Virus record (IMG/VR): IMGVR_UViG_3300007352_000013
Location: 65,436 to 129,435 of that record
Length of the DNA: 64,000 bases
From: a virus
Strand: one strand, 5' to 3'
In this document: piece after piece, positions 15,762-31,736 of the stretch
How positions within the stretch are numbered: position 1 is the first letter of the stretch
Layout: each line of letters opens with the position of its first letter
The notes under the pieces: model-generated
What the model was told of the DNA's origin: nothing
The model's input: only the letters and a program-made list of their open reading frames with translations
Database searches by the model: none
Made by a program: the position numbers and the translations under genes

Positions 15762-16365
15762 AATAATTGATTTAACAGGTAAAATATTCGGCAGATTAAA
15801 AGTTATAAAATTCTTTGGTAAAGATAAACAAAATCATGCTATTTGGACTTGTAAATGTGTATGTGGGAATACAAGGATGATACTTTCTAATAGTTTAAAA
15901 AGTGGCAAAACAAAAAGTTGTGGATGTCTATCTTCGGAAATAGCTTCTAAAAATATGACAAAACACGGATTGAGTTGTATTAAAACATACCATATATGGA
16001 AAGGTATAAAAAATAGATGTAATAATCCAAATAATCCATCTTATTATAATTATGGAGGACGTGGTATCAAGGTTTGTGAAAGATGGATGAAATTTGAAAA
16101 TTTCTTTGAAGACATGGGAGAACCACCAACAAATAGGCACAGTATAGATAGAATAAATAATAATAAAGGTTATTCCAAGTCAAATTGTAGATGGACAACA
16201 AAAGATAAGCAAGTCAGAAATACAAGACACAATTATAATATAAAATATAAGGGAAAAACCAAATGTCTAAAAGATTGGGCGAATGAATTGAATATTCCAT
16301 ATGTGACAATATGGTATAGATTGCGCAAATTTAATTGGACAGTAAAAAGAGCTTTTGTTAAATAA
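15754..16365 (+). CDS. HNH homing endonuclease
   Basis: GKIFGRLKV, CKCVCG, TKSCGC, YGGRGIKVCERW and SIDRINNNKGY motifs; overlaps the dnaE-N stop. Confidence 0.85.
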   Translation: MGKIIDLTGKIFGRLKVIKFFGKDKQNHAIWTCKCVCGNTRMILSNSLKSGKTKSCGCLSSEIASKNMTKHGLSCIKTYHIWKGIKNRCNNPNNPSYYNYGGRGIKVCERWMKFENFFEDMGEPPTNRHSIDRINNNKGYSKSNCRWTTKDKQVRNTRHNYNIKYKGKTKCLKDWANELNIPYVTIWYRLRKFNWTVKRAFVK

Positions 16366-16391
16366 TAGTAAATTTTATAGGTAATTATTAT

Positions 16392-16994
16392 ATGAATAGA
16401 ATGCAACAATTAGTAATGGAATTTCACAAAAAATTCGGACATACTAATAATAATAAACCAACATTAACAAACAAAGAACTTAATAAATTTAGAGAGAATT
16501 TGCTAGACGAAGAAATTCAGGAGCTTAAGGATGCAATAAATGCCGGTGATTTAGTTGAGATTGCCGATGCTTTGGGGGATGCACTATATGTTATATTCGG
16601 CACTTGTTGTTCACATGGTATAGATATAGAACCAATTTTTGAAGAAGTGCATAGATCTAATATGAGCAAAAGTTCTTCTGGAAGCAATTGTATAAAACAA
16701 AAAAAGGGTAAGAATTATTTTAAACCAAATATAAAATTAGTTCTTAATAAACAATTAATGAAGTGTAAAAATTGTAAATCAAATAATCTTATTCCTGATC
16801 ATGCATGTCTATATATTGATGCTGTTGATTTAGATCATCGTCCATATTATTGTTATGACTGTTGTAATAGCAGTATTAAAAGGGCAGGGATAAAATCGCC
16901 AATATATTGTGAACATACTAATCAAATGCCCGCAAATTGTCCGTGCTTAAACGATTGTTATTGCAAAAATCATTCGTGTAAACAAATTGGATAA
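16392..16994 (+). CDS. MazG-like/all-alpha nucleoside triphosphate pyrophosphohydrolase with Cys-rich C-terminal extension
   Basis: EFHKKFG, LLDEEIQEL, EIADALGDALYV and EVHRSNMSK motifs. Confidence 0.8.
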   Translation: MNRMQQLVMEFHKKFGHTNNNKPTLTNKELNKFRENLLDEEIQELKDAINAGDLVEIADALGDALYVIFGTCCSHGIDIEPIFEEVHRSNMSKSSSGSNCIKQKKGKNYFKPNIKLVLNKQLMKCKNCKSNNLIPDHACLYIDAVDLDHRPYYCYDCCNSSIKRAGIKSPIYCEHTNQMPANCPCLNDCYCKNHSCKQIG

Positions 16995-16998
16995 TATA

Positions 16999-17778
16999 AT
17001 GAATCAATTTAATTTTAATTGGAATTGTACTAATAAAGAATTGGTAATTTATGTTCCTAACTTTGGTCGTAAGCATCTACTAATTCCTACATTGAAAAGA
17101 TTTAAAACTATCGTGCCATATACCAAATGGATGTGGCTGGTAGTTAACGATGGTATTGACGAAGATATGTCTGATCTTGATAAGGAATTTAATCTTAAAT
17201 GGTTTACTTTTCAAAGAGAACCAGCCAATGAACGAAATGGATGTATGATTAGAAATATGTGTATAAAGAACTGTATGAGTAAATGGCTTTGTACTAAAGA
17301 CCCGGAAATAATCATAGAAGGCGATATTATATCTAAAATTTTAGATATTAAAGATGATATAGTTTATAGACCAAGAGGAATGATTGAATTGTTTGAACAA
17401 AACACCCAACAAATAATAGATAATCCATTTTTAGATTTAACTGAATTACCAATATTGAGACAGTGGGAAGCTAATGATAAAAGGAATCAGGCTTTCCATG
17501 CTGGTTGTGCTATAAGAACACAAAGACTGAAAGATATGCGAGGATATGACGAGGGATATAGTGCAGGATATGGTTTTGAGGATTGGTCAATGCTTGAAAG
17601 ACTTAAAAAATCAACAAGAGTTATTATAGATAATGATATACAAACTTATCATATCGGTCATCCAATTATAAGAAAGTTCCACAAGACTATAGTAAATAAT
17701 GAATCTATCTATAAAAAAGATTTACAAAATTTAAATATTATAGCCAATAAAAATGTTGAATGGGGTTATGGAGAATAA
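16999..17778 (+). CDS. GT-A (GT2/GT7-like) glycosyltransferase
   Basis: VPNFGR, RNMCIK, KDPE and GYDEGY..GYGFED motifs; paralog of 19727. Confidence 0.75.
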   Translation: MNQFNFNWNCTNKELVIYVPNFGRKHLLIPTLKRFKTIVPYTKWMWLVVNDGIDEDMSDLDKEFNLKWFTFQREPANERNGCMIRNMCIKNCMSKWLCTKDPEIIIEGDIISKILDIKDDIVYRPRGMIELFEQNTQQIIDNPFLDLTELPILRQWEANDKRNQAFHAGCAIRTQRLKDMRGYDEGYSAGYGFEDWSMLERLKKSTRVIIDNDIQTYHIGHPIIRKFHKTIVNNESIYKKDLQNLNIIANKNVEWGYGE

Positions 17779-17784
17779 AAATAA

Positions 17785-18423
17785 ATGCTAAATTTGTCTG
17801 GATTAAAATTTGGAAGATTAATAGCAAAAAATATAGTTGGATTAACAAAAGATAAAAGATGTCTTTGGCTGTGTGTTTGCGATTGCGGCAATACTAAAAT
17901 ATGTACATCTAAAAATTTAAAGGATGGATGCACTAAAAGTTGTGGTTGCTTAAAAAAGGAAACTGATATAAAAAATGGAAAAGCAAATAAAAAACATGGA
18001 TATAAAGGCACTAGAACATATAACATATGGAGAGATATGCTTGATAGATGTAAAAATGAAAAAAATATAAGTTATAAAAACTACGGTGGTAGAGGAATTA
18101 AAGTTTGCGATAGATGGGATATTTCTGAAGGAGGTTCTTTCGAGAATTTTATTAAAGATATGGGTGAAATTCCAAAAGGATTGACTATTGATAGAATTGA
18201 CAACAACGGGAATTATTGTCCAGAAAATTGTAAATTATCTACAAGAAAACAGCAAAGTAGGAATACTAGAAAAAATCATTTAATAACTTTTGGCGGTAAA
18301 ACTCAATGCTTATCTGCTTGGGCAGAAGAATACAACATATGTTTACAAACATTATGGTATAGAATAAAAAGGGGATTATCAATTAAAGATGCTATTAATA
18401 TCCGGAAAGATAATTATGAATAA
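17785..18423 (+). CDS. HNH homing endonuclease
   Basis: LSGLKFGRL, CDCG, TKSCGC, YGGRGIKVC and TIDRIDNNGNY motifs. Confidence 0.85.
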   Translation: MLNLSGLKFGRLIAKNIVGLTKDKRCLWLCVCDCGNTKICTSKNLKDGCTKSCGCLKKETDIKNGKANKKHGYKGTRTYNIWRDMLDRCKNEKNISYKNYGGRGIKVCDRWDISEGGSFENFIKDMGEIPKGLTIDRIDNNGNYCPENCKLSTRKQQSRNTRKNHLITFGGKTQCLSAWAEEYNICLQTLWYRIKRGLSIKDAINIRKDNYE

Positions 18424-19018
18424 AAATATAATAATAGGATTAGGAACGGGACGATGCGGCACCGTTACTTTAGCACATTTGTTAAATAAACAGCCAAATT
18501 TTAGTGTCACGCATGAATTTAATCCTACTTTTTGGGAATTTGATTACGGGTCTTTGATATTCCTTTTGAATAAACTAGAAAAAAGAACGCAGAATAATAT
18601 TGGTGATATAGCCTATTATCATCTTAATTATTGTGAGCATATATTAGATAAAATTAATAATGTTAAATTTCCTATAATGATTAGGAACAAAGAAGATGTT
18701 GTTAAAAGTTACATGAAGTGGACTAACGGACGTAATCATTGGTCAAAAGAAAGATCTAGAAATGAAAAAGAAGACAAATATTGGGATAAAACTTATCCAA
18801 AGTATAATTTACCAAAAATAGAAGCACTTAATAAATATTATGACGATTACTACACAAAGTGCAATGATTTAATAAATAAGTATCCAAATAAATTCAAGTT
18901 ATTTGAAATGCTTGAAACATTTAATACTGAATCTGGACAAAATAATTTATTAGATTTTATTGGTATAAATGAGAATGACAGGATATTAGATATTGGAATT
19001 AGGAAAAATGCTTCTTGA
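18416..19018 (+). CDS. PAPS-dependent sulfotransferase
   Basis: GLGTGRCGT 5'-PSB loop and IRNKEDVVKSY 3'-PB motif. Confidence 0.7.
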   Translation: MNKNIIIGLGTGRCGTVTLAHLLNKQPNFSVTHEFNPTFWEFDYGSLIFLLNKLEKRTQNNIGDIAYYHLNYCEHILDKINNVKFPIMIRNKEDVVKSYMKWTNGRNHWSKERSRNEKEDKYWDKTYPKYNLPKIEALNKYYDDYYTKCNDLINKYPNKFKLFEMLETFNTESGQNNLLDFIGINENDRILDIGIRKNAS

Positions 19019-19730
19019 TAAAGTAACATTATTAATAAAAACATTTGAAAGACCAGACTGTTTAAAAAAATTGCTTAATAGCATATATAAATATTATAAA
19101 AATATTCCAATAATAGTAGTAAACGATGGCGTTCCAATAAATGACATTCCAAATGTATTTCAAATCAATGTTGACTTCGATATGGGCGCTTCATATTGTA
19201 GAAATCTGGGATTATCAATGGTTAATACACCCTATGTTGTCACGCTCGATGACGATTTTATATTTAATGAAAGAACCAAATTAGAGACATGGTTAGATAT
19301 ACTTGAAAATACTTCTATTGATTTGATTTCTGGCGACGTAACAAATACGAGATATGAAGCTTGTTTTAAATTAGAAAATAAAATTTTACAATTTGTTAGA
19401 AAAAATAAAGGTATAGAATCTGGTTATCCGTTATATGATATAGTTCTTCAGTTTTGGATGGCAAGAACAGAAAAAATAAGATCTTTTGGTGGATGGTGCA
19501 ATGAATTTAAAACAATAGATCATATGCCCTTTTTTATAAATGCTTTTAACAAAATTAAGATAGCGTATTGTAATAGCGTATACGTAGACCATAAACAAGA
19601 AAGAACAAAAGAATATAATAGATTTAGACAAGATAGATCTCAAATGTATTTTGATTTGATTTTAGATAAATTTAATTTAAATAAAATAATAGGATATTGG
19701 GGCAATGTTGTTTCGGAAAAAAGAAAATGA
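19008..19730 (+). CDS. GT2 glycosyltransferase
   Basis: IKTFERP, VNDG, GASYCRN and TLDDD motifs. Confidence 0.8.
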   Translation: MLLDKVTLLIKTFERPDCLKKLLNSIYKYYKNIPIIVVNDGVPINDIPNVFQINVDFDMGASYCRNLGLSMVNTPYVVTLDDDFIFNERTKLETWLDILENTSIDLISGDVTNTRYEACFKLENKILQFVRKNKGIESGYPLYDIVLQFWMARTEKIRSFGGWCNEFKTIDHMPFFINAFNKIKIAYCNSVYVDHKQERTKEYNRFRQDRSQMYFDLILDKFNLNKIIGYWGNVVSEKRK

Positions 19731-20542
19731 TATCATTTAAAAATTTCGATTGGAAACAAACAAATAAAGAACTTGTATTATTAATCCCAAATTTTGGTCG
19801 TGGAAAATATGTAAGACAAACATTAAATAATCTTATAGAAACTTCTATTTCAAAAGACAGATGGGTAATTTTGCTTATTAATGATTCTATACATGAAGAT
19901 TTTAGCGATTTAGAAAATGAAAATATTTTATATTTTACTGTAGAAAGAAATAGTAAACATGAAAGGGGTGATGCTTTCATGAGAAATATTTGTATTAAAT
20001 ATTCACAATCAAAATTGCTGGCACAAAAAGACCCTGAAATTTTTTATACTAATGATTTTATAAAAGGATGTTTTAACAATCAGGGTGTATTGTATAGATG
20101 TGGTGGTATGGCACATTTAGCCAAAGAACAAGACACACATAATTATCTTGATAATAATATTGATGTTAATAAATTGATTAAAAATTCTGATAAATATCCA
20201 ATAACAGAAAGATTTGTTTATTGGCATTTCGGTCATTGCGCACCAATAGAATGTTTTAGAAAATTAAATGGATACGATGAAGATTTTAAATATTATGGAT
20301 ATGTAGATACGAATATGTGGGATAGACTAATGAAGTCCGGATTAAAACAACGTATTGATCCAACCTGTAACCCCATACACTTATGGCATCCAAAACCCCA
20401 TTTTAAAACTCACGAAAGAGACATAAAGAGATACGAAGCTATGGGTAAGCTTTATAATAACAAAATAAATCAAGATATAGTTGCTAATATTAATGTCGAA
20501 TGGGGCGAGGGCGATACCTTATATTTACCGGAGATAATATAA
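19727..20542 (+). CDS. GT-A (GT2/GT7-like) glycosyltransferase
   Basis: IPNFGRG, RNICIK, KDPE and GYDEDF..YGYVD motifs; paralog of 16999. Confidence 0.75.
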   Translation: MISFKNFDWKQTNKELVLLIPNFGRGKYVRQTLNNLIETSISKDRWVILLINDSIHEDFSDLENENILYFTVERNSKHERGDAFMRNICIKYSQSKLLAQKDPEIFYTNDFIKGCFNNQGVLYRCGGMAHLAKEQDTHNYLDNNIDVNKLIKNSDKYPITERFVYWHFGHCAPIECFRKLNGYDEDFKYYGYVDTNMWDRLMKSGLKQRIDPTCNPIHLWHPKPHFKTHERDIKRYEAMGKLYNNKINQDIVANINVEWGEGDTLYLPEII

Positions 20543-21276
20543 TGAATAATGTAATAATACTTGGAGCCGGTAGAAGCGGAACAAGTGCAATAGCCGGTTC
20601 TTTTCTTGGTGACTTTAATCGTGGAGGCACTTTGCATTTACCGAATGATGCAAATCCAAGGGGCTTTTTTGAATCAAACAATGTTAATAGAATAAACGAC
20701 GATTTACTCTGGATGTGTAAAGCAGTTAGAACAACAAGGGGTTTAAAACAAGGATGGTTGACGGCACTTGATAAAAGCCATTTACTTTGTGAAACAACAA
20801 AAAACATAGAAGATAGAATAGAAAATACGATAGAAAACAAACCCGTATTATTAAAAGATCCAAGATTTTCTTACACTCTTCCTGTATGGTTAAGATATTT
20901 ATCAAATTTGAAGATTGTGTGCGTATTCAGAAATCCTCAACAATTTCTATCAAGTTTATTATATCATTGTAAAACACAACAATATCTTAAAGAAATAGTT
21001 GTTGATCCAGAATTTTTCCAAGAAGTTTGGATTTCTATGTACAAATATATTTTAAAGTATTACATTAGATTAAATATTTTATTTATAAATTATTCAGAAA
21101 TATTATATGGAGATGGGCTTAAAAAGTTATCGGACTTTACCGGATACAAAACGAATTGCAATTTTCCAGAAAAAACTCTACAAAGATCGAACAATAATCA
21201 ACAAGTAGCGTATAATTTATTAGAAGTTTACGAAGAACTTTGTAATCTTGCTAATTGTCCAGAAGTTTTGAGATAA
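20542..21276 (+). CDS. PAPS-dependent sulfotransferase
   Basis: ILGAGRSGTS, NPRGFFE, LKDPR and VFRNP motifs. Confidence 0.75.
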   Translation: MNNVIILGAGRSGTSAIAGSFLGDFNRGGTLHLPNDANPRGFFESNNVNRINDDLLWMCKAVRTTRGLKQGWLTALDKSHLLCETTKNIEDRIENTIENKPVLLKDPRFSYTLPVWLRYLSNLKIVCVFRNPQQFLSSLLYHCKTQQYLKEIVVDPEFFQEVWISMYKYILKYYIRLNILFINYSEILYGDGLKKLSDFTGYKTNCNFPEKTLQRSNNNQQVAYNLLEVYEELCNLANCPEVLR

Positions 21277-21279
21277 AAT

Positions 21280-22356
21280 ATGTTTATAAAAACTATACCT
21301 CAATTCCAACCATTGAATAGACGTAAAGATGCTAAAGCTGTTTATAAAGCTATACGTAAAGGGAATTTAGGTCCGGGTGCCGTTTGTTTAAAATTAGAAG
21401 AACGGATTAAACAATTAACGGGGGCAAAACATTGCCTAACAACCACGAGCGGAACAACAGCCCTTATAATGGCCATAGAAGCCCTAGATTTGCCCAGGGG
21501 TTCAACGATCTTGTTTCCAAGCTATACTTTCCTTGCCGGAGCTAATGCGGCCCGTTTTATGGGTTATAAAGTAAAGCTTATAGATATACATCCAGACACG
21601 ATATGTATGAGCGCACTAGAATTAGAAGAAAAAATTAATAAAAATGTCAGTTGTGTAATATTTGTAAATCATAACGCCAGATCGCGTTATCATGGATTTG
21701 GCATAGATTACGCTAAATCAATATGTGAGAAACATAATATTCCAATAATAGAAGATTCGTGTCAGTCTATTGGGGTTAAAAATGCTGGTAGGACCGGAAA
21801 TATAGGGGTGTTCTCTTTCAGTGTTCCAAAACTTATTACGGGCGGACAAGGTGGAGCTATTATAACTGATGACGATAAACTTGCTAAGAGACTTTCTGAA
21901 ATAAGAGATCATGGTGACAATTGGCGAAAAAATCGTATTCATAAAAATATTGGTGTTAACTTTCGTTATAATGATATCCAAGCGAGTTACGTATTATCTC
22001 AATTGAATGATATTCAGGAATTATTAACTAAAAGGTGGATGCTATGCAATGAGTATAGTAAATACATAAATATAGAAAGTTTTGATTGTATAACATTTTC
22101 TAATGAAACCCCTTGGATGGTAATATATAAATCTAAGAATGCTGATAAAATAATAGAAGCATTAGCCGAAAAGAAAATACAAGCAGTTAAATATTACAGA
22201 CCAATTAATGAGAATAAACCATATAAAACAAGATTAAAATTTCCAGTGGCCGAACAGATGGCACACGAATTAGTATATTTGCCGTCAAGCTTAAATTTAT
22301 CAAAGAAACAAATAAGAAAAATATGTAATATTATTTTAAAAGTAGAAAGGAATTAA
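21280..22356 (+). CDS. DegT/DnrJ/EryC1/StrS PLP sugar aminotransferase (perosamine-synthase-like)
   Basis: TSGTTAL, PSYTF, EDSCQS and FSFSVPKLITGGQGG (PLP Lys) motifs. Confidence 0.88.
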   Translation: MFIKTIPQFQPLNRRKDAKAVYKAIRKGNLGPGAVCLKLEERIKQLTGAKHCLTTTSGTTALIMAIEALDLPRGSTILFPSYTFLAGANAARFMGYKVKLIDIHPDTICMSALELEEKINKNVSCVIFVNHNARSRYHGFGIDYAKSICEKHNIPIIEDSCQSIGVKNAGRTGNIGVFSFSVPKLITGGQGGAIITDDDKLAKRLSEIRDHGDNWRKNRIHKNIGVNFRYNDIQASYVLSQLNDIQELLTKRWMLCNEYSKYINIESFDCITFSNETPWMVIYKSKNADKIIEALAEKKIQAVKYYRPINENKPYKTRLKFPVAEQMAHELVYLPSSLNLSKKQIRKICNIILKVERN

Positions 22357-22358
22357 TA

Positions 22359-22583
22359 ATGAATGTTTTGGCGATAGTTGTTTTTTGGATATTATCTTTT
22401 TGTTCACCAATTTTGATTGCACACCCATGTTATTGTCCAGATAGTGATCTACAAGCATCTTTCCCCTGTGATTGTAGTAGAGTCAGAGATGAAATGAATG
22501 AGTGTGGTGAATGTTTTATGGATATAGGTATATGTGGCGATGTTACAGATGAAGAATGCGGTTGGTATTTATTAGCCTATTAA
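22359..22583 (+). CDS. Small secreted Cys-rich peptide
   Basis: Hydrophobic signal-like N-terminus; 9 Cys in 74 aa, acidic. Confidence 0.5.
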   Translation: MNVLAIVVFWILSFCSPILIAHPCYCPDSDLQASFPCDCSRVRDEMNECGECFMDIGICGDVTDEECGWYLLAY

Positions 22584-22596
22584 TAAGAGGAAGATT

Positions 22597-23583
22597 ATGG
22601 GTAAGAAAAGGGCATTAATATTCGGTATAACTGGTCAAGACGGTTCTTATTTAGCTGAACATTTGCTTGAATTGAATTATGACATATTTGGAACAGTGAG
22701 GCGGAATTCTGTTCCGGAAAGCCAAGGTACTAGAATAGACCATCTTTCTGGTTTAATAACAACATCATATGCAGATTTAAGCGACAATTCATCTATAGAA
22801 AGAATTATTAAAGATTGTCATCCAGATGAAATATATAATTTAGCAGCACAATCACATGTAAGAATAGGTGCCGATATTCCATTATATACAGTACAGACCA
22901 ACGCTCTTGGAGTGGCTAACATTTTAGAAGCTTATAGAAAATTCGCACCAAATGCCAAGTTCTATCAGGCATCTTCTAGTGAAATGTTCGGTAACAATGT
23001 TGATAAAGATGGATTCCAAAGAGAAACAACGCCTATGGAACCAGTTTCAGTTTATGGATGCACCAAATTATTCGCATTCAATCTCGTTAAATATTATCGT
23101 CGAGCATTTAATCTATTCGCTTGCAATGGCATTCTGTTCAATCACGAATCGCCACGTAGAGGAAGTAATTTTGTTACATCTAAAGTAGTTAAAACGGCAG
23201 TAGAAATTTCATTGGGTATTAGTGATAAATTAATTCTTGGAAATCTTGATAGCTATAGGGATTGGGGTCATAGCTATGATTACGTCAGAGCTATGAAATT
23301 GATTCTTGATGAAAATGGACCAAATGATTTTGTTGTTGCAACAGGAGAAACGCATTCTGTTAGAGAAATGTGCGAATATGTTTTTAATAGATTAGATTTA
23401 GATTATAGAGATTATATTGAAATAAATCCGGCATTTTATAGACCAGAAGAATTAAAATATTTAAAGGGTGATAGCACAAGAGCCAGAAATATTCTTGGAT
23501 GGAAACCAAAATTTACTTTCCAAACTATGTTGGATGATATGATCTATCATTGGCAAAAAGAATTAGTTACCAAAAGGAATTAA
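22597..23583 (+). CDS. gmd: GDP-mannose 4,6-dehydratase
   Basis: GITGQDGSYLAE, NLAAQSHV, YQASSSEMFG, YGCTK, NHESPRRG and RDWGH motifs. Confidence 0.95.
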   Translation: MGKKRALIFGITGQDGSYLAEHLLELNYDIFGTVRRNSVPESQGTRIDHLSGLITTSYADLSDNSSIERIIKDCHPDEIYNLAAQSHVRIGADIPLYTVQTNALGVANILEAYRKFAPNAKFYQASSSEMFGNNVDKDGFQRETTPMEPVSVYGCTKLFAFNLVKYYRRAFNLFACNGILFNHESPRRGSNFVTSKVVKTAVEISLGISDKLILGNLDSYRDWGHSYDYVRAMKLILDENGPNDFVVATGETHSVREMCEYVFNRLDLDYRDYIEINPAFYRPEELKYLKGDSTRARNILGWKPKFTFQTMLDDMIYHWQKELVTKRN

Positions 23584-23584
23584 T

Positions 23585-23875
23585 ATGTCTAAAATTAGAG
23601 TATATGATCGTGAAATAAATAATATAGTTAATTACCTTAATAAGCTTTTAGAATTAGATCGTGCAGCTATTAATAAATTATTTTTAGATAATTATGTTGT
23701 AGTTAATAAAAATATAATGAATCATAAATATGCCCAAGTAAGAATGGATGGTAAATTTGGAATCCTCGGTTTAATAAATGGAATTATTATTCCGCACAAT
23801 AGAGTTATTTATATGGATTTGGACGAAAAAGAAAATATAATAAAATTTAGATCGAGTAAATACAAAAATGATTAA
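23585..23875 (+). CDS. Hypothetical protein
   Basis: Packed ORF; GILGLING motif. Confidence 0.55.
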   Translation: MSKIRVYDREINNIVNYLNKLLELDRAAINKLFLDNYVVVNKNIMNHKYAQVRMDGKFGILGLINGIIIPHNRVIYMDLDEKENIIKFRSSKYKND

Positions 23876-23901
23876 TAGAATTATCACAAAAGGAAAATAT
23901 A

Positions 23902-24276
23902 ATGGCTGGGAAAGGCGATAGATATAGACCAGTTAATAAAGAAGTTTATGATAAAAATTTTGAATGTGTATTTGGTATTAAAAAATTAAATATTATGTCC
24001 AATGAAGATCGTGAAGAATTAATTTATGACAGAGATGGAAAAATTGGTAGAAATATATCTTCGGACGGATATGACAGTAGAAACATTCATGAAGCGAGCC
24101 AAATTGCTTCGGGCAAAAAGAGACGCCGTAAAGCAAAAACATTCTGGATCGGCCCCGGCTACAGAGGCGAATATAGTTGTCCACACGGAGTAGGACACGG
24201 AAATCATATTCATGGATGCTGTCAAGAACGATGTTGCACAAGAGAAGACTTTCCATTGAGGAATAAAAATGGCTAG
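23902..24276 (+). CDS. Hypothetical protein (GKGDRYRP N-terminus, CPHGVGH C-terminus)
   Basis: ORF with AGGA SD; His/Cys-rich end. Confidence 0.5.
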   Translation: MAGKGDRYRPVNKEVYDKNFECVFGIKKLNIMSNEDREELIYDRDGKIGRNISSDGYDSRNIHEASQIASGKKRRRKAKTFWIGPGYRGEYSCPHGVGHGNHIHGCCQERCCTREDFPLRNKNG

Positions 24277-24682
24277 ATATATTTATTCTAAGGTTGATCC
24301 AACTAAACTTTTACATATTATACATGACATAACAGAAACAAAAGAACAAAGAGAAGATCTTGTTCCACCCAATAATTTTCTTCAAATAGCAACTATACCA
24401 TTAAAAGCAAATCAAACATTTAAGGCTCACAAACATATATGGAATAACTTTAATGGTCCCAAAATCGCGCAAGAATCGTGGATAGTTATTCGCGGAAGAG
24501 TTGAAGCTACTTTATACGACATAGATAATACTATATTGGAAAAAGTTATACTACACGAGGGTCATTTATCTATTACATTAGAAGGCGGTCATAATTATAT
24601 GGCTTCACCTGAAGGTGCATTTGTTTATGAAGTAAAAACAGGGCCGTATCAAGGAATAGAGTTGGATAAGGAATTTATTTAA
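24269..24682 (+). CDS. WbuC-like cupin-fold metalloprotein
   Basis: HKH, QESW, GGHNY and EVKTGPY motifs. Confidence 0.7.
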   Translation: MARYIYSKVDPTKLLHIIHDITETKEQREDLVPPNNFLQIATIPLKANQTFKAHKHIWNNFNGPKIAQESWIVIRGRVEATLYDIDNTILEKVILHEGHLSITLEGGHNYMASPEGAFVYEVKTGPYQGIELDKEFI

Positions 24683-25062
24683 TGAAAATTTATATAGCAA
24701 CTAAAAAACAAGATGCAGCCGTAGCATTAAGAAGAAAATTAAAAGAAATTTTTCAAGATAAAGTTAGTTTTGTTAGTTCATGGATAGATCAAGAAAGCTA
24801 TGGAAATACTCCTATATGCCAAAAAATGGCTATTGCCGAAAGATGTGAAAACGATGTTAAACAATGCGATTTATTAATAAACATAGCTGATGAAGTAAAT
24901 ACGCACGGAGGAAAGCACGTAGAACTAGGAATAGCTCTGGCTTTAGGGAAAAAAATAATGGTTTTGGGTAGAAAAGAGAATATCTTCCATCATCATAAAT
25001 CTGTTATATTTTTCGAAACAGATGATAAATTGATTGATAAAATGAAAGAAATGATTCACTAA
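24682..25062 (+). CDS. Nucleoside 2-deoxyribosyltransferase / dNMP N-glycosidase-like protein
   Basis: KIYIA, DVKQCD and GGKHVELGIALALGK motifs. Confidence 0.7.
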   Translation: MKIYIATKKQDAAVALRRKLKEIFQDKVSFVSSWIDQESYGNTPICQKMAIAERCENDVKQCDLLINIADEVNTHGGKHVELGIALALGKKIMVLGRKENIFHHHKSVIFFETDDKLIDKMKEMIH

Positions 25063-25091
25063 ATGGCTTAAGATATCTGCGAGAAAAAGAA

Positions 25092-25631
25092 ATGCTAAAA
25101 TTACATTTAGGCGCTGGAAAACGAGATTTTGGAGAAGGATGGTTCAATGTTGATATAGCCGATTTTCCTCATATTCATCACAAAGATATAACTAAACTTC
25201 CATTCGAAGACAATTCTGTCGATCTTATCTATTCTGCACATACCATAGAATACTTTGATAGACAAGAGATTATCCCAATTTTACAAGAATGGAAACGTAC
25301 TCTCAAACCAAATGGAATACTTCGTCTAGCTGTACCAGATTTTGAAACTATGTGTATGCTTTATTTTTCACAAATGTATCCAATAGAAAATTTCTTGGGT
25401 CCATTATACGGAAAAATGGATGTAGGTGATAAAAAAATATATCATAAAACATGTTATGATTTCAAAAGTTTATCGACATTATTAATGTCTATTGGAATGA
25501 AAAATATAAGAAGATATAAGTGGAGAAATACTGAACACGCACAATTTGACGATCATTCTCAAGCATATCTTCCGCATATGGATAAAGTAAATGGGGTGTG
25601 TTTAAGTCTAAATGTTGAATGTGAAAAATAA
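25092..25631 (+). CDS. Class I SAM methyltransferase (Methyltransf_11-like)
   Basis: LHLGAG, LPFEDNSVDLIYSAH and LKPNGILRLAVPD motifs. Confidence 0.8.
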   Translation: MLKLHLGAGKRDFGEGWFNVDIADFPHIHHKDITKLPFEDNSVDLIYSAHTIEYFDRQEIIPILQEWKRTLKPNGILRLAVPDFETMCMLYFSQMYPIENFLGPLYGKMDVGDKKIYHKTCYDFKSLSTLLMSIGMKNIRRYKWRNTEHAQFDDHSQAYLPHMDKVNGVCLSLNVECEK

Positions 25632-26260
25632 TGGAAATAATTCAGAGATTAAAAGACATAATAAAAAAGCCAAATCCACTAATTATAGAAATAGGATGCT
25701 GGAATGGTAGAGACACAGAATTATTTTTGAATATATTCCCTGAATGTAAGATATTTGGATTTGAACCAGACCCAAGGAACATAGAAAAAATAAAAAAAAG
25801 AATAAATAATCGAAGATTCGAATTAATAGAAGAAGCTATAAGTGATAAAGATGGGATTATAACTTTTTATGAAAGTCATGGAATAGCTAATGGGGAAAGT
25901 GATTGGAGCGCTTCTAGCTCTTTGAATAAACCCAAAAAACATTTAGATATAAATCCCCATATTACTTTTGGAAATGGAGTTAAAGTTTTTGGAAGAAAAT
26001 TAGATAATTTCATAGAAAAAAAACAAATAAAAAATATAGACTTAATTTGGGCCGACGTTAATGGTGCAGAATATAAGATGATAAATGGTGCTTTAGAAAC
26101 CATGAAAATAACAAAATTTCTATATACCGAATTCAGCGAAAAGGAAATATACGAAGAAAGCATCACTAAAGAAAAAATTAAAAGCATGTTACCTAATTTC
26201 AAAGAAATATTTACCCACAAAAATAACGTATTATTGGAGAATAAATTATTATCTACATAA
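25631..26260 (+). CDS. FkbM-family methyltransferase
   Basis: EIGCWNG, FEPDPRN and DLIWADVNGAE motifs. Confidence 0.85.
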   Translation: MEIIQRLKDIIKKPNPLIIEIGCWNGRDTELFLNIFPECKIFGFEPDPRNIEKIKKRINNRRFELIEEAISDKDGIITFYESHGIANGESDWSASSSLNKPKKHLDINPHITFGNGVKVFGRKLDNFIEKKQIKNIDLIWADVNGAEYKMINGALETMKITKFLYTEFSEKEIYEESITKEKIKSMLPNFKEIFTHKNNVLLENKLLST

Positions 26261-27195
26261 CAACACAACATGAACGGGGTGTCAAAAATCGTTACAATAG
26301 TGATGGCGCTATTGGTCATCATTTCTTAAATTGGTTAAAGGGTCCGGTTTTGGCGCAAAGATATGGTTTAAGATATGTATATAATAATATAGTTCCAGAT
26401 TATATGGGTACGCAATGGAACGAATTCTTGGGTTTAGATAAAAGAGTTCCTTCCAAACTTAATGAATTAGGAGTTCCGGTTTACTCCATTAGTGACATAA
26501 AAAATTGTCAAATAGTAGATATCCCACAAATAGAATGGAACGCATCATATACCCATCCAATAATTATTGAATATATTAATAAATACAAATATGCATCAAT
26601 AAATGAAGATGAAAATATTTTATTAAGAACATCACCCGGACGTGGATTTTATATAGATTGGCAATATTGGCTTAATAATGATTTAAGAGAAAAATATGAT
26701 TTTGCTAGACAAGAAAATCCTGTTGAGCTACATAATGCTGATGATTTTTATATGGTTTGTATTCATTGGAGAAGGGGAGATATAAATAATAAAGATCAGC
26801 CGGAAAGATGGATCACTAATGAACGATATTATAAATTAATAAATAATATTAAAAATACATTAGATAATTTATATATAAGATATAAGATACAAATAATTTC
26901 AGAAGGTGAACAAAAAGATTTTGGATGCGTAAATGATATAGACAATATAGAATTCGTATTAAATGAAAACCCGATAATATCATTCCATAGAATGATTATA
27001 TCCGATATTCTTATTAATGCAAAATCTGCATTTTCTGTTTGTGCAGCATATTTTCATAAGGGTCCAAAGCTTTGTATTCCATTTAGTATATATTGGCAGC
27101 AAACTCATCCAGATAATGATAACTTTAAAGATCTTATATGGATAAATGAGAGTATGGATTTTCATATTAAAACATTGGATATATTGTTAGGATGA
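26248..27195 (+). CDS. GT11 (alpha-1,2-fucosyltransferase)-like glycosyltransferase, non-ATG start
   Basis: IHWRRGD motif and SAFS. The frame stays open upstream of the track start 26350 and carries GAIGHHFLNW, matching GIGHQFLNW of the paralog. Probable start at ATT 26248. Confidence 0.7.
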   Translation: MIYITTQHERGVKNRYNSDGAIGHHFLNWLKGPVLAQRYGLRYVYNNIVPDYMGTQWNEFLGLDKRVPSKLNELGVPVYSISDIKNCQIVDIPQIEWNASYTHPIIIEYINKYKYASINEDENILLRTSPGRGFYIDWQYWLNNDLREKYDFARQENPVELHNADDFYMVCIHWRRGDINNKDQPERWITNERYYKLINNIKNTLDNLYIRYKIQIISEGEQKDFGCVNDIDNIEFVLNENPIISFHRMIISDILINAKSAFSVCAAYFHKGPKLCIPFSIYWQQTHPDNDNFKDLIWINESMDFHIKTLDILLG

Positions 27196-27773
27196 AAATA
27201 TTAGTGGGCTGTGAATTTTCTGGAGTCGTTCGTAGTGCTTTTGCAGCAAAGGGTCACGATGCTTGGTCTTGTGATTTGCTAGATACAGAAGTTAATGGTA
27301 ATCATATAAGGGGTGATCTTTTAAAGATACTAGATAACGGTTGGGATTTGGCTATATTCCATCCACCATGCACATATTTGTGTAGTAGTGGTTTGCATTG
27401 GAACAAAAGAAAACCAGAAAGACAAAAATTAACAGAAGAAGCTTTAGAATTTGTTAGAAAATTATTGAATGCGCCTATAGAAAAAATAGCGTTAGAAAAC
27501 CCAATAGGTTGTATTTCGACAAGAATAAGAAAGCCGGATCAAATTATACAACCGTTTCAATTCGGCCATTCGGAGAGTAAATCAACTTGTTTATGGTTAA
27601 AAAATCTACCATTATTAAAACCCACTAAAATATTGGATACACCAGAATGTGGATATTGGAACAACCAAACTCCTTCTAGACAAAATAAGTTAGGACCATC
27701 TGATAATAGGTGGAAATTAAGATCAATAACCTATCAGGGTTTTGCCGACGCTATGGCGAATCAATGGGGATAA
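27192..27773 (+). CDS. Short phage-type DNA cytosine-C5 methyltransferase
   Basis: LVGCEFSG motif I, HPPCTYL catalytic PC, ENPIG and K.TCLWL motifs. Confidence 0.8.
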   Translation: MKILVGCEFSGVVRSAFAAKGHDAWSCDLLDTEVNGNHIRGDLLKILDNGWDLAIFHPPCTYLCSSGLHWNKRKPERQKLTEEALEFVRKLLNAPIEKIALENPIGCISTRIRKPDQIIQPFQFGHSESKSTCLWLKNLPLLKPTKILDTPECGYWNNQTPSRQNKLGPSDNRWKLRSITYQGFADAMANQWG

Positions 27774-27774
27774 A

Positions 27775-28743
27775 ATGAATAGATATATAACTGTTAAACC
27801 ACATGGTGGATTTGCGGGAATTGGTCATCAATTTCTGAATTGGTTAGTTCCTTACGTGCTTGCGCAAAGATATGGTCTTAAATTCGTTCATCAAAATTTC
27901 GTTGGAGAAACAGACGGTACTTTTGCTCCAAGGGGTTCTAACGCTAATCAAATAACTAGACCAGTAAAAGAATGGAATAATTTTCTAAATTTAGGAGAAG
28001 GTGAAATAACATTACAAGATTTAAATATACATAGCTTAACAGAAATAAATCTACCGTATATAGATCAAGAAAAAGCAACTTGGAATAATATAGAATTTTC
28101 GTCTTTATTAGAAAATGATCTTCGTACAATTGGCAAATTTTGTGGAACATTGTATAGAGTATCGGAAGATATAGATGGACAATTTGTACACATAGATTGG
28201 GATTTTTATAAAAGTAATAATCTAAAGAAAAAATATAATAACTCACAACAGGTAAAGAATTTCAAATGTTATTTTGATGAAGGATGTACAAATGTAGCCA
28301 TACATATCAGAAGAGGTGACGTTACAGAGAATACACCGTACAGAAGATGGCAAAATCTAGGTTATTATCTTGGAATAATAGATAATTTATCAAATATAAA
28401 AGAACTAAAGAATGTAGTTTTTCATATCTATTCTTGGGATATGTCTAAGGAAGAAAGAGATGTATTGTTTTTGCATAGTATTTTCGGGAAAAGAGAGATA
28501 GAATTACATATAGACGAAGATGTTTTTTCAACATTCTACCATATGACAAAAGCAGATATATTTGTGTCTGGCCAAGGTGCATTTTCTTTAATGGCTAATT
28601 ACTTGACCGATGCAGTGAAATTAACAACACCATTTTATATGCATTGGAAAGATTTTCCAGAAGATATTCATGATATAATAGAAGTTAGACCAGATAGTTC
28701 TTTTAATCAAAAAAAACTTTTAAAAGCATTGGGAAATAAATGA
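27775..28743 (+). CDS. GT11-like glycosyltransferase
   Basis: AGIGHQF, AIHIRRGD and GAFS motifs; paralog of 26248. Confidence 0.75.
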   Translation: MNRYITVKPHGGFAGIGHQFLNWLVPYVLAQRYGLKFVHQNFVGETDGTFAPRGSNANQITRPVKEWNNFLNLGEGEITLQDLNIHSLTEINLPYIDQEKATWNNIEFSSLLENDLRTIGKFCGTLYRVSEDIDGQFVHIDWDFYKSNNLKKKYNNSQQVKNFKCYFDEGCTNVAIHIRRGDVTENTPYRRWQNLGYYLGIIDNLSNIKELKNVVFHIYSWDMSKEERDVLFLHSIFGKREIELHIDEDVFSTFYHMTKADIFVSGQGAFSLMANYLTDAVKLTTPFYMHWKDFPEDIHDIIEVRPDSSFNQKKLLKALGNK

Positions 28744-29312
28744 AAAAATTAGACTGGAGAGAGGTTGAGGGTTGGTTTTCTGAAGCTGACGCCGCTTTCG
28801 TATCAGATATATTGAAAGATACTCGCAACGGAACCGTAGTAGAAATAGGATTATTTTATGGTCGAGCTAGTGCTGTTATGATGCCACTGGCCCTTGATAA
28901 TGGAAATCAGTATTATGCAATCGATAATTTTTATGGTGGTGTAGACGAAACAACACCAGCTTCAAAAATTCAAAGATCAGACGGCGCTAAAGTTATGGCA
29001 AAATTTATATCTAATATGAAGGCTTTAGGAATAAATCGTTCCGATTACGCTTTATATAAATCCAATAGTATTGAAGCTTCAGTTTATTTACCCGACGAAT
29101 CTGTAGATTTTTGTTTTATAGATTCGGATCATGCTTATGAATCGGTGAAACTAGATTTAGAAACTTGGTGGAAAAAAATCAAAATTAATGGTATATTAGG
29201 GGGCCATGATTACAACAATCCGGATGTTAGAAGAGCTTTGGACGAATTCGTTAAAGACAAAAATGTGACCGTACAAACCGGGGGAAATTGTTGGAATCTT
29301 ATAAAAAAATAA
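28740..29312 (+). CDS. Class I SAM methyltransferase (Methyltransf_24-like, probable sugar O-methyltransferase)
   Basis: VEIGLFYGRAS, FIDSDHAYE and GILGGHDY motifs. Confidence 0.8.
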   Translation: MKKLDWREVEGWFSEADAAFVSDILKDTRNGTVVEIGLFYGRASAVMMPLALDNGNQYYAIDNFYGGVDETTPASKIQRSDGAKVMAKFISNMKALGINRSDYALYKSNSIEASVYLPDESVDFCFIDSDHAYESVKLDLETWWKKIKINGILGGHDYNNPDVRRALDEFVKDKNVTVQTGGNCWNLIKK

Positions 29313-29473
29313 ATAGACTATTCGATGATGCTCCTAGTAATAAAGAGGTTTTAGAAATAAAAAGAAGGAATAAAAACGGAGAATCTGTCGCTAAAATTAA
29401 AAAAGATATGAATATACATCCAAAATTTATAACAGATATAATAAAGAAGTATAAATGGAAAAAACTAAAATAA
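29288..29473 (+). pseudogene. Remnant of the C-terminal HTH domain of an HNH-type endonuclease
   Basis: EVLEIK..G.S...I...MNI....ITDI....W pattern; no nuclease core and no good ATG. Confidence 0.45.
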
Positions 29474-31212
29474 AATTTGCTAATTGTGACTGTATCGTTG
29501 AACCGGGAAAATTTGATGTAAATAAAATTCCAACAAATTGCCCAGCTACTTTTGCGCTCATTTCTTCTGGTTTTACAACTGGAATTTTTCAACTCGAAAG
29601 TAGATTGGGAATGGATTGGGCTAAGAAGGTACAGCCACAGAATATAGAAGAGATTGCAGCTTTATCTGCATTATTAAGGCCCGGCGCTTTAGAGAGTGGA
29701 CAATCCGAGGAATATGTAGATATAAAATTTGGTAGAAAACAACCTTCGTATTTACATCCGGCATTAAAAGATATTTTGTCAAGTACATATAATTCTATGA
29801 TTTATCAAGAACAGGCATTGGCCATAGCGAAAGAAATAGCCGGATTTACTATGGAAGAAGCAGATAATTTAAGAAAAGCTGTTGGAAAAAAGATTCCAGA
29901 ATTGATGGCTTCTTTAAAACAAAAATTCATAGACGGAGCATTAAATAATAAGGTAACTAAAAATGTTGCAGAACAAATATTCGATTGGATTGAGAAAAGT
30001 CAGCGATATTCGTTTAATAAATCTCATGCAATTGCTTATGGAATATTAAGTTATAATACGGCTTGGATGAAATGTCATTTCCCATTAGAATTTTTTACAA
30101 GCTATTTAACGTATTCGGATTATAAAGCTGATACGATGGATGAAATTTATAGATTGGTTCAGGATGCTCGTTTATTTGGAATAGAAGTTTTGCAACCGGA
30201 TATAAAAGAATGTAATGTAAAATTTAAGATGACAGATGATAAAATAAAATTTGGATTATCTAATATAAAGGGGGTTGGTCCATCTGCAATAGAAAAAATT
30301 ATAAAGAACGGAAAAGAATCATTATCAACTTGGCAAGGATTTTTAAAATCTTTACCAGCATTACATAGAAATGTTGGAATAGCACTTATAAAATCTGGAT
30401 CTTGTGATTGTTATAATAAATCAAGATCACAAATGATCAAAGAACTAGAATGTATATTTGGCACTCAGATTAAAGATGAAAATGGCAAAACAAAAGAAAT
30501 CAGAGGTTTAACAGAAAGAGAAAGAAAATGGTTTTTTCATAAACTTGGTGATGAAAAGTCTGTTATAGATGTATTAAATGAAATGACAAATAAAGTAAAT
30601 GAGATGTCAACTAGATCATTAGGCGGAATGAATAAGGGTGAAATAATAGATTTCACGAAAGAATATACCGGATTAAAAGACGAAGATTTAATTGGAAAGA
30701 CAAAATTCGATGTTATAAATATACTTAAAAAATATGGATACGAAACAAATAGAGATAATAAACCTCTTTCAAATATAAAAAGAATATCTATTATAAAAGA
30801 AAAAATAAAAGAACTACAAGAAATATCAGAAGATACTAATTTGGGAAAAGCTACTGCTGAAAAATACTTTTTAGGAATCTCTTTATCATGCTCGCCAGCA
30901 GATGACGCAGATGACGAATGTGCAACTCATACATGTCTAGATTTGGCAAAAGCTTTAAATGGAGAAAATTTTTCAATTTGTGCTGTAATAGATAATGTAA
31001 AACATACCAAAACTAAAAGAGGTAAAAATATTGGGGCGGCAATGTGTTTCTTAACCATTTCTGATTCTACCTACAGTATAGATCATGCGGTGGTTTTTCC
31101 CGATTCATATGAAAAATTAAGCAAATACTGTAAAGATGGTATGATTTGTTTGCTACAGGGTTATAAAAAGAATGGATCTATAATTATTGAAAATATAAGA
31201 AAATTAATTTAA
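29455..31212 (+). CDS. dnaE: DNA polymerase III alpha, C-terminal half (fingers, HhH, OB)
   Basis: TGIFQLES, SALLRPGALESG, MIYQEQ, ADNLRKAVGKK, YSFNKSHA, FGLSNIKGVG and EKYFLG motifs. Confidence 0.92.
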   Translation: MEKTKIKFANCDCIVEPGKFDVNKIPTNCPATFALISSGFTTGIFQLESRLGMDWAKKVQPQNIEEIAALSALLRPGALESGQSEEYVDIKFGRKQPSYLHPALKDILSSTYNSMIYQEQALAIAKEIAGFTMEEADNLRKAVGKKIPELMASLKQKFIDGALNNKVTKNVAEQIFDWIEKSQRYSFNKSHAIAYGILSYNTAWMKCHFPLEFFTSYLTYSDYKADTMDEIYRLVQDARLFGIEVLQPDIKECNVKFKMTDDKIKFGLSNIKGVGPSAIEKIIKNGKESLSTWQGFLKSLPALHRNVGIALIKSGSCDCYNKSRSQMIKELECIFGTQIKDENGKTKEIRGLTERERKWFFHKLGDEKSVIDVLNEMTNKVNEMSTRSLGGMNKGEIIDFTKEYTGLKDEDLIGKTKFDVINILKKYGYETNRDNKPLSNIKRISIIKEKIKELQEISEDTNLGKATAEKYFLGISLSCSPADDADDECATHTCLDLAKALNGENFSICAVIDNVKHTKTKRGKNIGAAMCFLTISDSTYSIDHAVVFPDSYEKLSKYCKDGMICLLQGYKKNGSIIIENIRKLI

Positions 31213-31217
31213 TAATT

Positions 31218-31226
31218 TGTTATAAT
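31218..31226 (+). promoter_or_regulatory. Extended -10 promoter (TGnTATAAT) for ssb
   Basis: TGTTATAAT in the intergenic gap, followed by an AAGGAG SD and GTG start. Confidence 0.5.
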
Positions 31227-31257
31227 AGTTGTTAACTAATTTTAAAGGAGAATAATT

Positions 31258-31728: not shown

Positions 31729-31736
31729 AAAATATA

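Follow-up and report, generated by a model that had tools for sequence, protein, structure and literature searches.

In the Megavirinae (Mimivirus, Moumouvirus and Tupanvirus), fibril glycans depend on gene clusters that differ by clade and comprise 6-33 genes (Notaro et al. 2022, PMC10117803). According to a later article, glycans are also carried on the capsid and tail tube of mycobacteriophages (Freeman et al. 2023, as cited in PMC12619734). These glycans are added to virion proteins by soluble phage glycosyltransferases (GTs) in the cytoplasm, and neither a lipid carrier nor export is involved. Here, we describe a putative glycan system of a tailed phage, found in a window of 64,000 nucleotides (bases 65436-129435 of the 129,435-bp IMG/VR viral contig IMGVR_UViG_3300007352_000013). 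The contig is 77% complete according to CheckV, and the GC content is ~30%. In this window, an island of ~20 genes for sugar synthesis, transfer, methylation and sulfation lies between the N-terminal and C-terminal halves of dnaE (dnaE-N and dnaE-C). The original prediction, made from the letters of the window, had placed here a pathway for a sulfated, methylated amino-deoxysugar glycan. We tentatively favour the reading that, as in Megavirinae and mycobacteriophages, a cytoplasmic, clade-variable glycan is placed on virion proteins.

In the mechanism that we propose, the island would be one of several interchangeable sugar cassettes in a clade of uncultured phages of ~165-180 kb, and it would work with a conserved trio of soluble GT4 enzymes encoded after dnaE-C and ssb. 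Host GDP-mannose would be converted by Gmd to GDP-4-keto-6-deoxymannose. A cupin and a DegT-family aminotransferase would then yield a GDP-linked 3- or 4-amino-6-deoxyhexose, perosamine-like or mycosamine-like and possibly N- or O-methylated. The GT-B trio would attach the inner, conserved part of the glycan to an acceptor in the cytoplasm. The enzymes of the cassette would then extend it and cap it with methyl groups and sulfate, the latter from host 3′-phosphoadenosine 5′-phosphosulfate (PAPS). The acceptor would most likely be a virion protein (tail fibre or capsid), which would give a clade-variable surface coat.

The island resembles the Megavirinae clusters in being virus-encoded and independent of host export, in using rare bacterial-type amino- and deoxysugar pathways with many GTs and methyltransferases, and in a gene content that differs between clades (clusters of 6-33 genes in Megavirinae; ~20 genes and three or more cassette types here). 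However, Megavirinae are giant amoeba viruses whose fibril glycans have been chemically proven, whereas the present tailed phage, with its putative glycan, has been seen in metagenomes only. Their donors are mostly UDP-sugars; here, the donor would derive from GDP-mannose, and sulfotransferases are added. Mycobacteriophages have one to a few GTs beside structural genes, without a nucleotide-sugar pathway or a sulfotransferase. The studied phage differs from them in its eight GTs, its sugar-nucleotide module and its position in the replication module, and the glycosylation of its virion is a prediction. The virion-glycosylation genes of mycobacteriophages include methyltransferases.

Other known systems share single features with the island. 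Cyanomyoviruses (e.g. S-SCSM1, S-CAM7 and P-SSM2) are also large lytic phages with Gmd (44-48% identical) and further sugar genes, but they pair Gmd with Fcl/WcaG to make GDP-fucose, whereas the studied phage has no Fcl, pairs Gmd with DegT and a cupin, and adds sulfotransferases and GT11-like enzymes. Bacterial O-antigen loci for GDP-perosamine (e.g. Vibrio cholerae O1, Escherichia coli O157 and Caulobacter) likewise have Gmd beside DegT, and the GDP-binding motif HxRRGD is shared. In contrast to these loci, the DegT protein here is no closer to perosamine synthetases than to C3 enzymes, no PerB-type N-acyltransferase was found among the matches of the island, and no ManB/ManC, Wzx/Wzy, Wzm/Wzt or initiating transferase in the contig. 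The DNA glucosylation system of T-even phages (alpha- and beta-glucosyltransferase acting on 5-hydroxymethylcytosine) also has enzymes of the GT-B fold, encoded in large lytic phages amid replication genes. Here, however, no hydroxymethylase was found, the fold neighbours are GT4 and not GT63/GT72, and the number of enzymes is far above what a mono- or disaccharide on DNA needs.

Conserved GT-B trio and alternative cassettes

The open reading frames (ORFs) of the island and its flanks were compared with Pfam, NCBIfam, PHROG, PDB and the ESM Atlas. For the genomic comparison, we used the IMG/VR phages G001-G004, whose DnaE-N proteins are 56-77% identical to that of the studied phage, and G005, a complete 168-kb genome bounded by direct terminal repeats. 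G003 is an 82%-complete relative with the cassette type of the studied phage. The break point of dnaE, at 768-787 amino acids (aa), is common to the studied phage and four relatives. Between the dnaE halves of G001-G003, the same genes occur in the same order (GT-A, GT2, GT-A, sulfotransferase, DegT, Gmd, cupin, the methyltransferases MT11 and FkbM, and GT11), at 37-91% amino-acid identity. Because this order recurs in three relatives, the arrangement is not a matter of chance.

Where the studied phage has an HNH homing endonuclease gene and the sulfotransferase-like gene at 18389, the three closest relatives (G001-G003) carry a LicD-family gene and a 390-aa cytidylyltransferase-methyltransferase fusion. 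It seems that a decoration of the phospho-alcohol type was exchanged for a second sulfotransferase. G004 has a different cassette in the same slot, with a HAD phosphatase, a GatZ-like protein, a mannose-6-P-isomerase-type cupin, a nucleotidyltransferase/kinase, TylF, an FkbM-like protein, GT32 and a GT1-like protein. A third cassette type, in locus L105, has a PfkB kinase, two methyltransferases, a sulfotransferase-like protein and two GT-like proteins. The slot ahead of dnaE-C can thus be filled by at least three kinds of sugar cassette (types A, B and C), and its gene set varies by clade. Such clade-specific variation is expected of virion glycosylation systems of the Megavirinae or mycobacteriophage type, and it was found both among the three types and within type A (LicD/cytidylyltransferase versus sulfotransferase).

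The two HNH genes of the locus (15742-16365, phrog_374, E = 5e-74; 17785-18423, phrog_374, E = 4e-71) are paralogues. The first overlaps the end of dnaE-N and the second lies at the LicD/cytidylyltransferase site, which suggests an endonuclease-associated exchange of cassettes. G003 is riddled with another endonuclease family. We considered the HNH gene at 15742, which is not at this place in G001, as the cause of the dnaE split, but the same break exists in relatives without it and this explanation was rejected. An origin of the 18389 gene as a remnant of the 390-aa fusion was also rejected, as the two have no similarity. No homologue of 18389 was found in the related loci.

In some clades (L110, L113 and L117), dnaE-N adjoins dnaE-C with no cassette between them. 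More distant members (L131-L159; e.g. L136:5788-9075) have an unsplit DnaE of 1095-1140 aa, followed by a sigma-like gene, GTB1 and GTB2, and their variable sugar genes lie downstream of the GT-B genes. Therefore, the nesting is a clade-specific position and not a functional link, and the split of dnaE arose within the family. The dnaE-C gene of G003 (L009:411-3122) encodes 903 aa, against 585 aa in the studied phage, and has an in-frame insertion of ~300 aa, placed between query residues ~109 and 80-585. This insertion is probably an intein; the split of the gene itself involves none.

The extent given to the island in the original prediction, 16999-29312, proved right for the genes it covers but omitted a trio of GT-B (GT4) genes after ssb at 31737-35619. 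GTB1 (31737-33443; PF00534) is GT4-like, with a CxxC..CxxC insert and a C-terminal helical domain. It is followed on the same (plus) strand by GTB2 (33443-34618; PF00534, E = 3.3e-11), which is kept beside GTB1 in relatives, and GTB3 (34618-35619; PF00534, E = 1.8e-17), whose PDB matches are GT4 enzymes (BshA-like, TarM and PglA). Three further plus-strand ORFs of 245, 181 and 275 aa (35619-37725) have no Pfam or PHROG match, and their order is kept in relatives. The trio and these three ORFs stand after dnaE-C/ssb in all five phages, including G004 with its other cassette. An alignment search with GTB1 revealed 73 IMG/VR loci, many of them on contigs of 130-180 kb. About 60 of the 73 have the order dnaE-C, (ssb, sigma-like gene), GTB1, GTB2 and, in part, GTB3. 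The GT-B trio is the conserved core of the system.

About 18 of ~62 GTB1 homologues were 895-1567 aa long instead of ~570 aa (L101-L105, L107-L109, L112, L117, L118, L128-L130, L148, L151 and L157), with an alignment break near residue 101 (between FKPDIV and C). The insertions are intein-sized and number up to three per gene, and the copy in the window is intein-free. Intein-sized insertions are typical of conserved core genes, and a glycosyltransferase is an unusual intein host. The AlphaFold2 model of GTB1 had a pLDDT of 92.9, and its best Foldseek match was a putative GT of chlorovirus NY2A (3OY2). Next came the retaining GT4 enzymes MshA, GlgM, BshA and PimB′; among the matches listed, there was no T4 alpha- or beta-glucosyltransferase. 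A PDB sequence search with GTB1 gave no match. In GenBank phages, a GTB1 homologue was found only in the Synechococcus siphophages S-CBS4 and S-EIVl (25% identity). In S-CBS4 (L185, 7049-9415), the homologue, a 'galactosyl transferase' and an S-adenosylmethionine (SAM) methyltransferase lie between the portal gene and the head protease/major head genes. S-CBS4 is a tractable cultured system for virion glycosylation by the GTB1 family.

The GT-B block of the studied phage adjoins divergently oriented fibre-like genes. Adjoining it are also two minus-strand pairs of Gly/Ser/Thr-rich paralogues of ~206 aa, with 20-26% Ser+Thr (38467-39093/39568-40191 and 48675-49295/49297-49914). The first pair is kept in relatives (t208 and t207), and both would be natural candidates for glycan acceptors.

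Island enzymes and the predicted sugar

All island ORFs are on the plus strand. Their junctions overlap or measure at most 30 nt, except for gaps of 89 nt ahead of 26350 and 142 nt ahead of dnaE-C. Hidden Markov model (HMM) matches, motifs and paralogy agreed with the predicted inventory (Gmd, DegT, a cupin, three GT-A, two GT11-like enzymes, two sulfotransferases and three methyltransferases) and with its nesting in dnaE. All the classes named were found; the HNH gene at 17785, a C5-methyltransferase-like gene at 27192, a deoxyribosyltransferase-like gene at 24682 and three small ORFs had been missed.

Gmd (22597-23583; PF16363, E = 2.9e-106) scored 349 bits with TIGR01472, below the equivalog cut-off of 415, and it has the catalytic set of a short-chain dehydrogenase/reductase (SDR), with GxxGxxG, S-E and YxxxK present. 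The product of this enzyme family is GDP-4-keto-6-deoxymannose. The DegT protein (21280-22356; PF01041, E = 1.5e-68) retains the pyridoxal phosphate lysine in the motif SVPKLITGGQGG. It is therefore an aminotransferase and not a ColD-type dehydratase. Compared with solved structures, it scored 130 bits with scyllo-inositol aminotransferase, 117 with WbpE (C3) and 104, over residues 34-261 only, with perosamine synthetase. Its best NCBIfam matches, PseC and LegC, were both far under cut-off, and the name 'perosamine synthetase' on its homologues is an automatic JGI label. Between DegT and Gmd lies a 74-aa ORF (22359-22583), strongly hydrophobic at its N-terminus (hydropathy 2.19 at residue 1) and rich in Cys in its tail. 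These two genes overlap in G001 and leave no room for it, so this ORF appears special to the studied phage.

The small cupin (24269-24682), originally called WbuC, does have the conserved metal motif (HxH..E..H, with H54, H56, E69 and H108 invariant), but its TIGR04366 score is 34.6 bits against a cut-off of 42. A PDB profile search with it gave chance-level matches only (E = 0.75). The cupin accompanies DegT and Gmd in all four phages (the studied phage and G001-G003). The three proteins also occur together in an unrelated 595-kb uncultured phage, LR756511.1 (L186, 40.7% GC; 12055-14984), with identities of 51% (cupin), 49% (DegT) and 60% (Gmd), and a 172-aa ORF lies with them. Therefore, cupin, DegT and Gmd form a module that is mobile among large phages.

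The predicted absence of Fcl from the window also holds for the 129-kb contig, where Gmd was the sole SDR of the epimerase/dehydratase family and a search of this family found neither Fcl nor Rmd. NTP_transferase (ManC) and adenosine 5′-phosphosulfate (APS) kinase were not found in the contig either. The phage would therefore depend on its host for GDP-mannose and PAPS. No acyltransferase family (PerB-like) was present among the Pfam and NCBIfam matches of the island, in a contig that is 77% complete. Of the GDP-perosamine pathway first proposed, the Gmd step stood. The amination step may be of the perosamine type, with a DegT protein about as far from C4 as from C3 enzymes, and neither ManC in the contig nor a PerB-like enzyme in the island was found. 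The product would be a GDP-linked amino-6-deoxyhexose. GDP-perosamine, a 4-amino sugar, is plausible, and a 3-amino sugar made through a cupin ketoisomerase seems equally possible, because the conserved cupin travels with DegT and Gmd. MT11 and FkbM, which come after these genes in all four phages, may methylate the sugar or the glycan.

GT-A 1 (16987-17778, or from the ATG at 16999 in the original prediction) is 61-77% identical in three relatives. It stays below the Glyco_transf_7C cut-off alone but is a paralogue (BLASTP, E = 1e-40) of GT-A 2 (19697-20542), which scored 25.2 bits with this family (cut-off 23) and is duplicated in G002 and G003. The remaining GT-A enzyme is of the GT2 family (18993-19730; PF00535, E = 8.5e-10, 39 bits; FKRP_N, 27.2 bits). 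The GT11-family protein at 27742-28743, which is present in three relatives and duplicated in G003, has both the HxRRGD motif (HIRRGD) and an HMM match (PF01531, 25.2 bits, cut-off 23.9). The GT11-like protein at 26350-27195 has HWRRGD and is linked to it as a paralogue (E = 4e-25). GT11 is a family of GDP-sugar-dependent enzymes of the alpha-1,2-fucosyltransferase kind. With the GT-B trio, the soluble GTs number eight (three GT-A, two GT11-like and three GT-B), together with two sulfotransferases and three sugar-type methyltransferases. The latter are the class I SAM methyltransferase MT11 (Methyltransf_11, 25092-25631; PF08241, E = 1.7e-11; kept in three relatives), FkbM (25631-26260; PF05050, E = 4e-13; TIGR01444, E = 9e-21) and the TylF-like Methyltransf_24 (28740-29312; PF13578, E = 4e-17), and all three exceed the Pfam cut-offs.

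The sulfotransferase at 20500-21276 (PF00685, 25.8 bits, cut-off 22) is kept in three relatives and has the motifs GAGRSGTS and FRNPQQFLSS. The protein at 18389-19018, found only in this phage among the relatives, scored 22.4 bits with Sulfotransfer_3, under the Pfam cut-off. It has the motifs GRCGT and RNKEDVVKS, and in the ESM Atlas it fell into sulfotransferase clusters (score 0.97, TM 0.92-0.94). By their 5′-phosphosulfate loop, 3′-phosphate motif and HMM or fold matches, both are predicted PAPS-dependent sulfotransferases, with PAPS as the presumed donor. For the sulfotransferase, the nearest ESM Atlas clusters were 83-95% viral. A sulfated phage glycan had been thought unusual, but since the family forms virus-dominated clusters, sulfotransferases of this type appear not to be rare at the gene level in uncultured phages. 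A literature search on phage sulfotransferases linked with tail-fibre or virion glycosylation, or lying in such clusters, gave no relevant papers.

Other island genes are less easily connected with sugars. The protein at 27192-27773 resembles phage mini DNA C5-cytosine-methyltransferases (phrog_757, E = 5e-64) and has PPC and ENP motifs. In the ESM Atlas, it falls into clusters that bear the name DNA cytosine methyltransferase and whose members are 78-100% viral; Pfam and PDB searches gave no match. It is probably not a sugar gene. The gene at 24682-25062 is similar to nucleoside 2-deoxyribosyltransferase and CMP N-glycosidase (PF05014, E = 7.4e-9; PDB 4jen, E = 0.0013), and among the relatives it was found only in G001. 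Two small ORFs of 96 and 124 aa (23585-24276) have no Pfam or NCBIfam match; of the pair, only a part of the longer one was found in the relatives.

Flanking genes and lineage

The flanks, from dnaE-N onwards also on the plus strand, contain replication genes. The 772-aa dnaE-N (13443-15761; PF02811 and PF07733) comprises the PHP domain and the core of the polymerase III alpha subunit, and the 585-aa dnaE-C (29455-31212; PF17657 and PF14579) the finger, HhH and OB regions. The latter is followed by ssb, for a single-strand DNA-binding protein (31258-31728; PF00436, E = 2.3e-21). A MazG/PRA-PH-like NTP pyrophosphohydrolase gene (16392-16994; PF01503, E = 1.3e-20) directly precedes the first GT-A gene and is also present in G001 and G003. 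Directly upstream of dnaE-N, at 11823-13450, are genes for a T4 gp1-like dNMP kinase (PF21448) and a PD-(D/E)XK nuclease.

The phage, of ~170 kb, belongs to an uncultured lineage. Megablast of 20.5 kb against 50,697 GenBank phage records found no nucleotide match, and the DnaE half was at most ~33% identical to known phage proteins. The identical DegT protein is recorded on two contigs, of which the longer has 172,525 bp. Thus, a public metagenome probably contains the studied phage in complete or almost complete form. Upstream regions have a Shine-Dalgarno-like enrichment of G at -11 to -8, with AGGA in 29% against a background of 5%, which argues against a typical Bacteroidota host, although the best cellular match of Gmd is from Sediminibacterium. 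No tRNA was found in the window. A promoter and terminator scan of 13000-32900 gave no more sites than shuffled sequence, and operon boundaries could not be drawn from it. A sequencing-run search listed no RNA runs; two DNA runs, with a word share of 0.10-0.11, were not used as habitat evidence.

Candidate acceptors of the glycan

A hydropathy scan of all 240 contig ORFs found no polytopic membrane protein that by its size could be a transporter, a polymerase or an initiating transferase. The only proteins with at least three transmembrane (TM) segments were one of 97 aa and a putative tail protein of 1586 aa. The same scan revealed only proteins of 86 and 121 aa, and no export-type protein, in the complete genome G005, and only two small proteins and the 1552-aa counterpart of the tail protein in G003. 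None of the components of a Wzx/Wzy or ABC locus (initiating phosphoglycosyl transferase, flippase, polymerase and ABC permease) was found in the contig, G005 or G003. Thus, the lack of a flippase and a polymerase, predicted for the window, extends to the 129-kb contig, a complete 168-kb relative and an 82%-complete relative with the same cassette.

As no export machinery was found, a cytoplasmic acceptor remains the leading reading. The island has its own nucleotide-sugar pathway and soluble GTs that are independent of export, as is expected for virion glycosylation. We favour virion proteins as the acceptor because of the missing export route, the core status of the GT-B trio, the virus-dominated families, the serotype-like switching of cassettes and the precedents. 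Of the two acceptors originally proposed, virion proteins therefore lead, and DNA is disfavoured by the missing hydroxymethylase and the GT4 fold. The Ser/Thr-rich tail proteins offered as support are real (15-26% against a mean of 10.8%) but usual for fibres, and they are uninformative.

Several points weigh against a glycan on virion proteins. The acceptor is a presumed one, and the contig is 77% complete. The island lies in a replication module (dnaE, ssb, dNMP kinase and MazG) and not in a structural operon. PHROG and Pfam searches with ten putative virion proteins gave no match, and the capsid and fibre proteins are not securely named. Host O-antigen pathways, too, generally use soluble peripheral GTs. 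For the sugar itself, the DegT protein appears about equidistant from solved C3 and C4 aminotransferases, and its regiospecificity and nucleotide preference are presumed. Membership of the cupin in WbuC is not established at a score below the cut-off, and its AlphaFold2 model, from a four-sequence alignment, had a pLDDT of 36 and was unusable. A more detailed picture is possible but doubtful, namely a virion glycan whose inner part is made by intein-targeted GT-B enzymes and whose outer part is made by serotype-like cassettes at the split dnaE, with an HNH-linked swap of LicD/cytidylyltransferase for sulfation.

It is also conceivable, although unlikely, that the phage GTs, at the inner side of the membrane, modify undecaprenyl-linked or lipid A-core intermediates of the host, and that an altered O-antigen or capsule is exported by host machinery (initiating transferase, flippase or ABC transporter, and ligase). 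Such remodelling might, for example, block superinfection or change the adsorption of competitors. Gmd, DegT, GT2, GT4, GT11, FkbM and, in the relatives, LicD are typical of bacterial O-antigen or capsule loci, and O-antigen GTs are normally without TM helices. In ABC-dependent O-antigen synthesis, terminal methyl or phosphate caps are known chain terminators. The island also sits with replication, presumably early, genes, and a Sediminibacterium metagenome-assembled genome has the best cellular match of Gmd (63%), in a locus of the polysaccharide type. Gmd and GDP-fucose synthase of cyanomyoviruses are annotated as lipopolysaccharide-type (PMC9602691). However, the GT-B trio is core to a whole lytic-looking clade and invaded by intein-sized insertions, which would be unusual for a moron, and the sulfotransferase family is virus-dominated, not host-like. 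No integrase was seen near the island, although no search was aimed at integrases. Envelope remodelling would also require that the eight transferases find a suitable acceptor in each of many hosts.

Hypermodification of DNA seems improbable. In this case the GT-B trio, co-transcribed with dnaE-C and ssb, would glycosylate phage DNA, and the cassette would elaborate the sugar against restriction. Phage DNA glycans are described as diverse in the article that cites the original work (Pyle 2024, as cited in PMC12619734). A role in DNA would fit the position among replication genes, the CxxC..CxxC insert of GTB1 and the dNMP kinase, MazG-like, C5-methyltransferase-like and nucleoside-deoxyribosyltransferase-like genes in or near the island, and the diversity of cassettes would suit an arms race with restriction. 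However, a ThyA-like hydroxymethylase (PF00303) was absent from the contig and from four of the five 100%-complete relatives, with the sole match in the most distant one. A search for the Tet_JBP family found no match, but its control was silent and it carries little weight. The modelled fold of GTB1 matches a chlorovirus GT and retaining GT4 enzymes, with no T4 glucosyltransferase among the matches listed. GT11-type enzymes act on glycan acceptors, and eight GTs with sulfation and methylation go far beyond any known DNA glycan. The least probable reading is a soluble or lipid-anchored glycoconjugate that belongs to neither virion nor envelope, such as a glycosylated non-structural phage protein or an intracellular small-molecule glycoside. 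All the enzymes are soluble, the GT4 neighbours include the small-molecule transferases BshA and MshA, and the CMP N-glycosidase-like gene is of a kind used in nucleoside antibiotic pathways. Nevertheless, eight transferases imply an oligo- or polysaccharide, and the serotype-like switching of cassettes suggests exposure to selection from outside.

If the more detailed picture, with its inner GT-B glycan and outer serotype-like cassettes, were right, this would be the first case of a bacteriophage particle that bears a sulfated, methylated amino-deoxysugar glycan. The GT-B trio offers a handle for finding such phages (73 IMG/VR loci), and cupin-DegT-Gmd is a compact pathway amenable to in vitro work. 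Giant viruses are known to make glycans of their own, and mycobacteriophages do so in a simple form. With a clade of tailed phages that has ~20 glycan genes, eight soluble transferases, sulfation and a switching of cassettes at one fixed locus, viral glycobiology would come to include ordinary phages of waters and sediments. Phage particles might then differ in serotype, which would bear on adsorption, on defence or decoy interactions and on particle stability.

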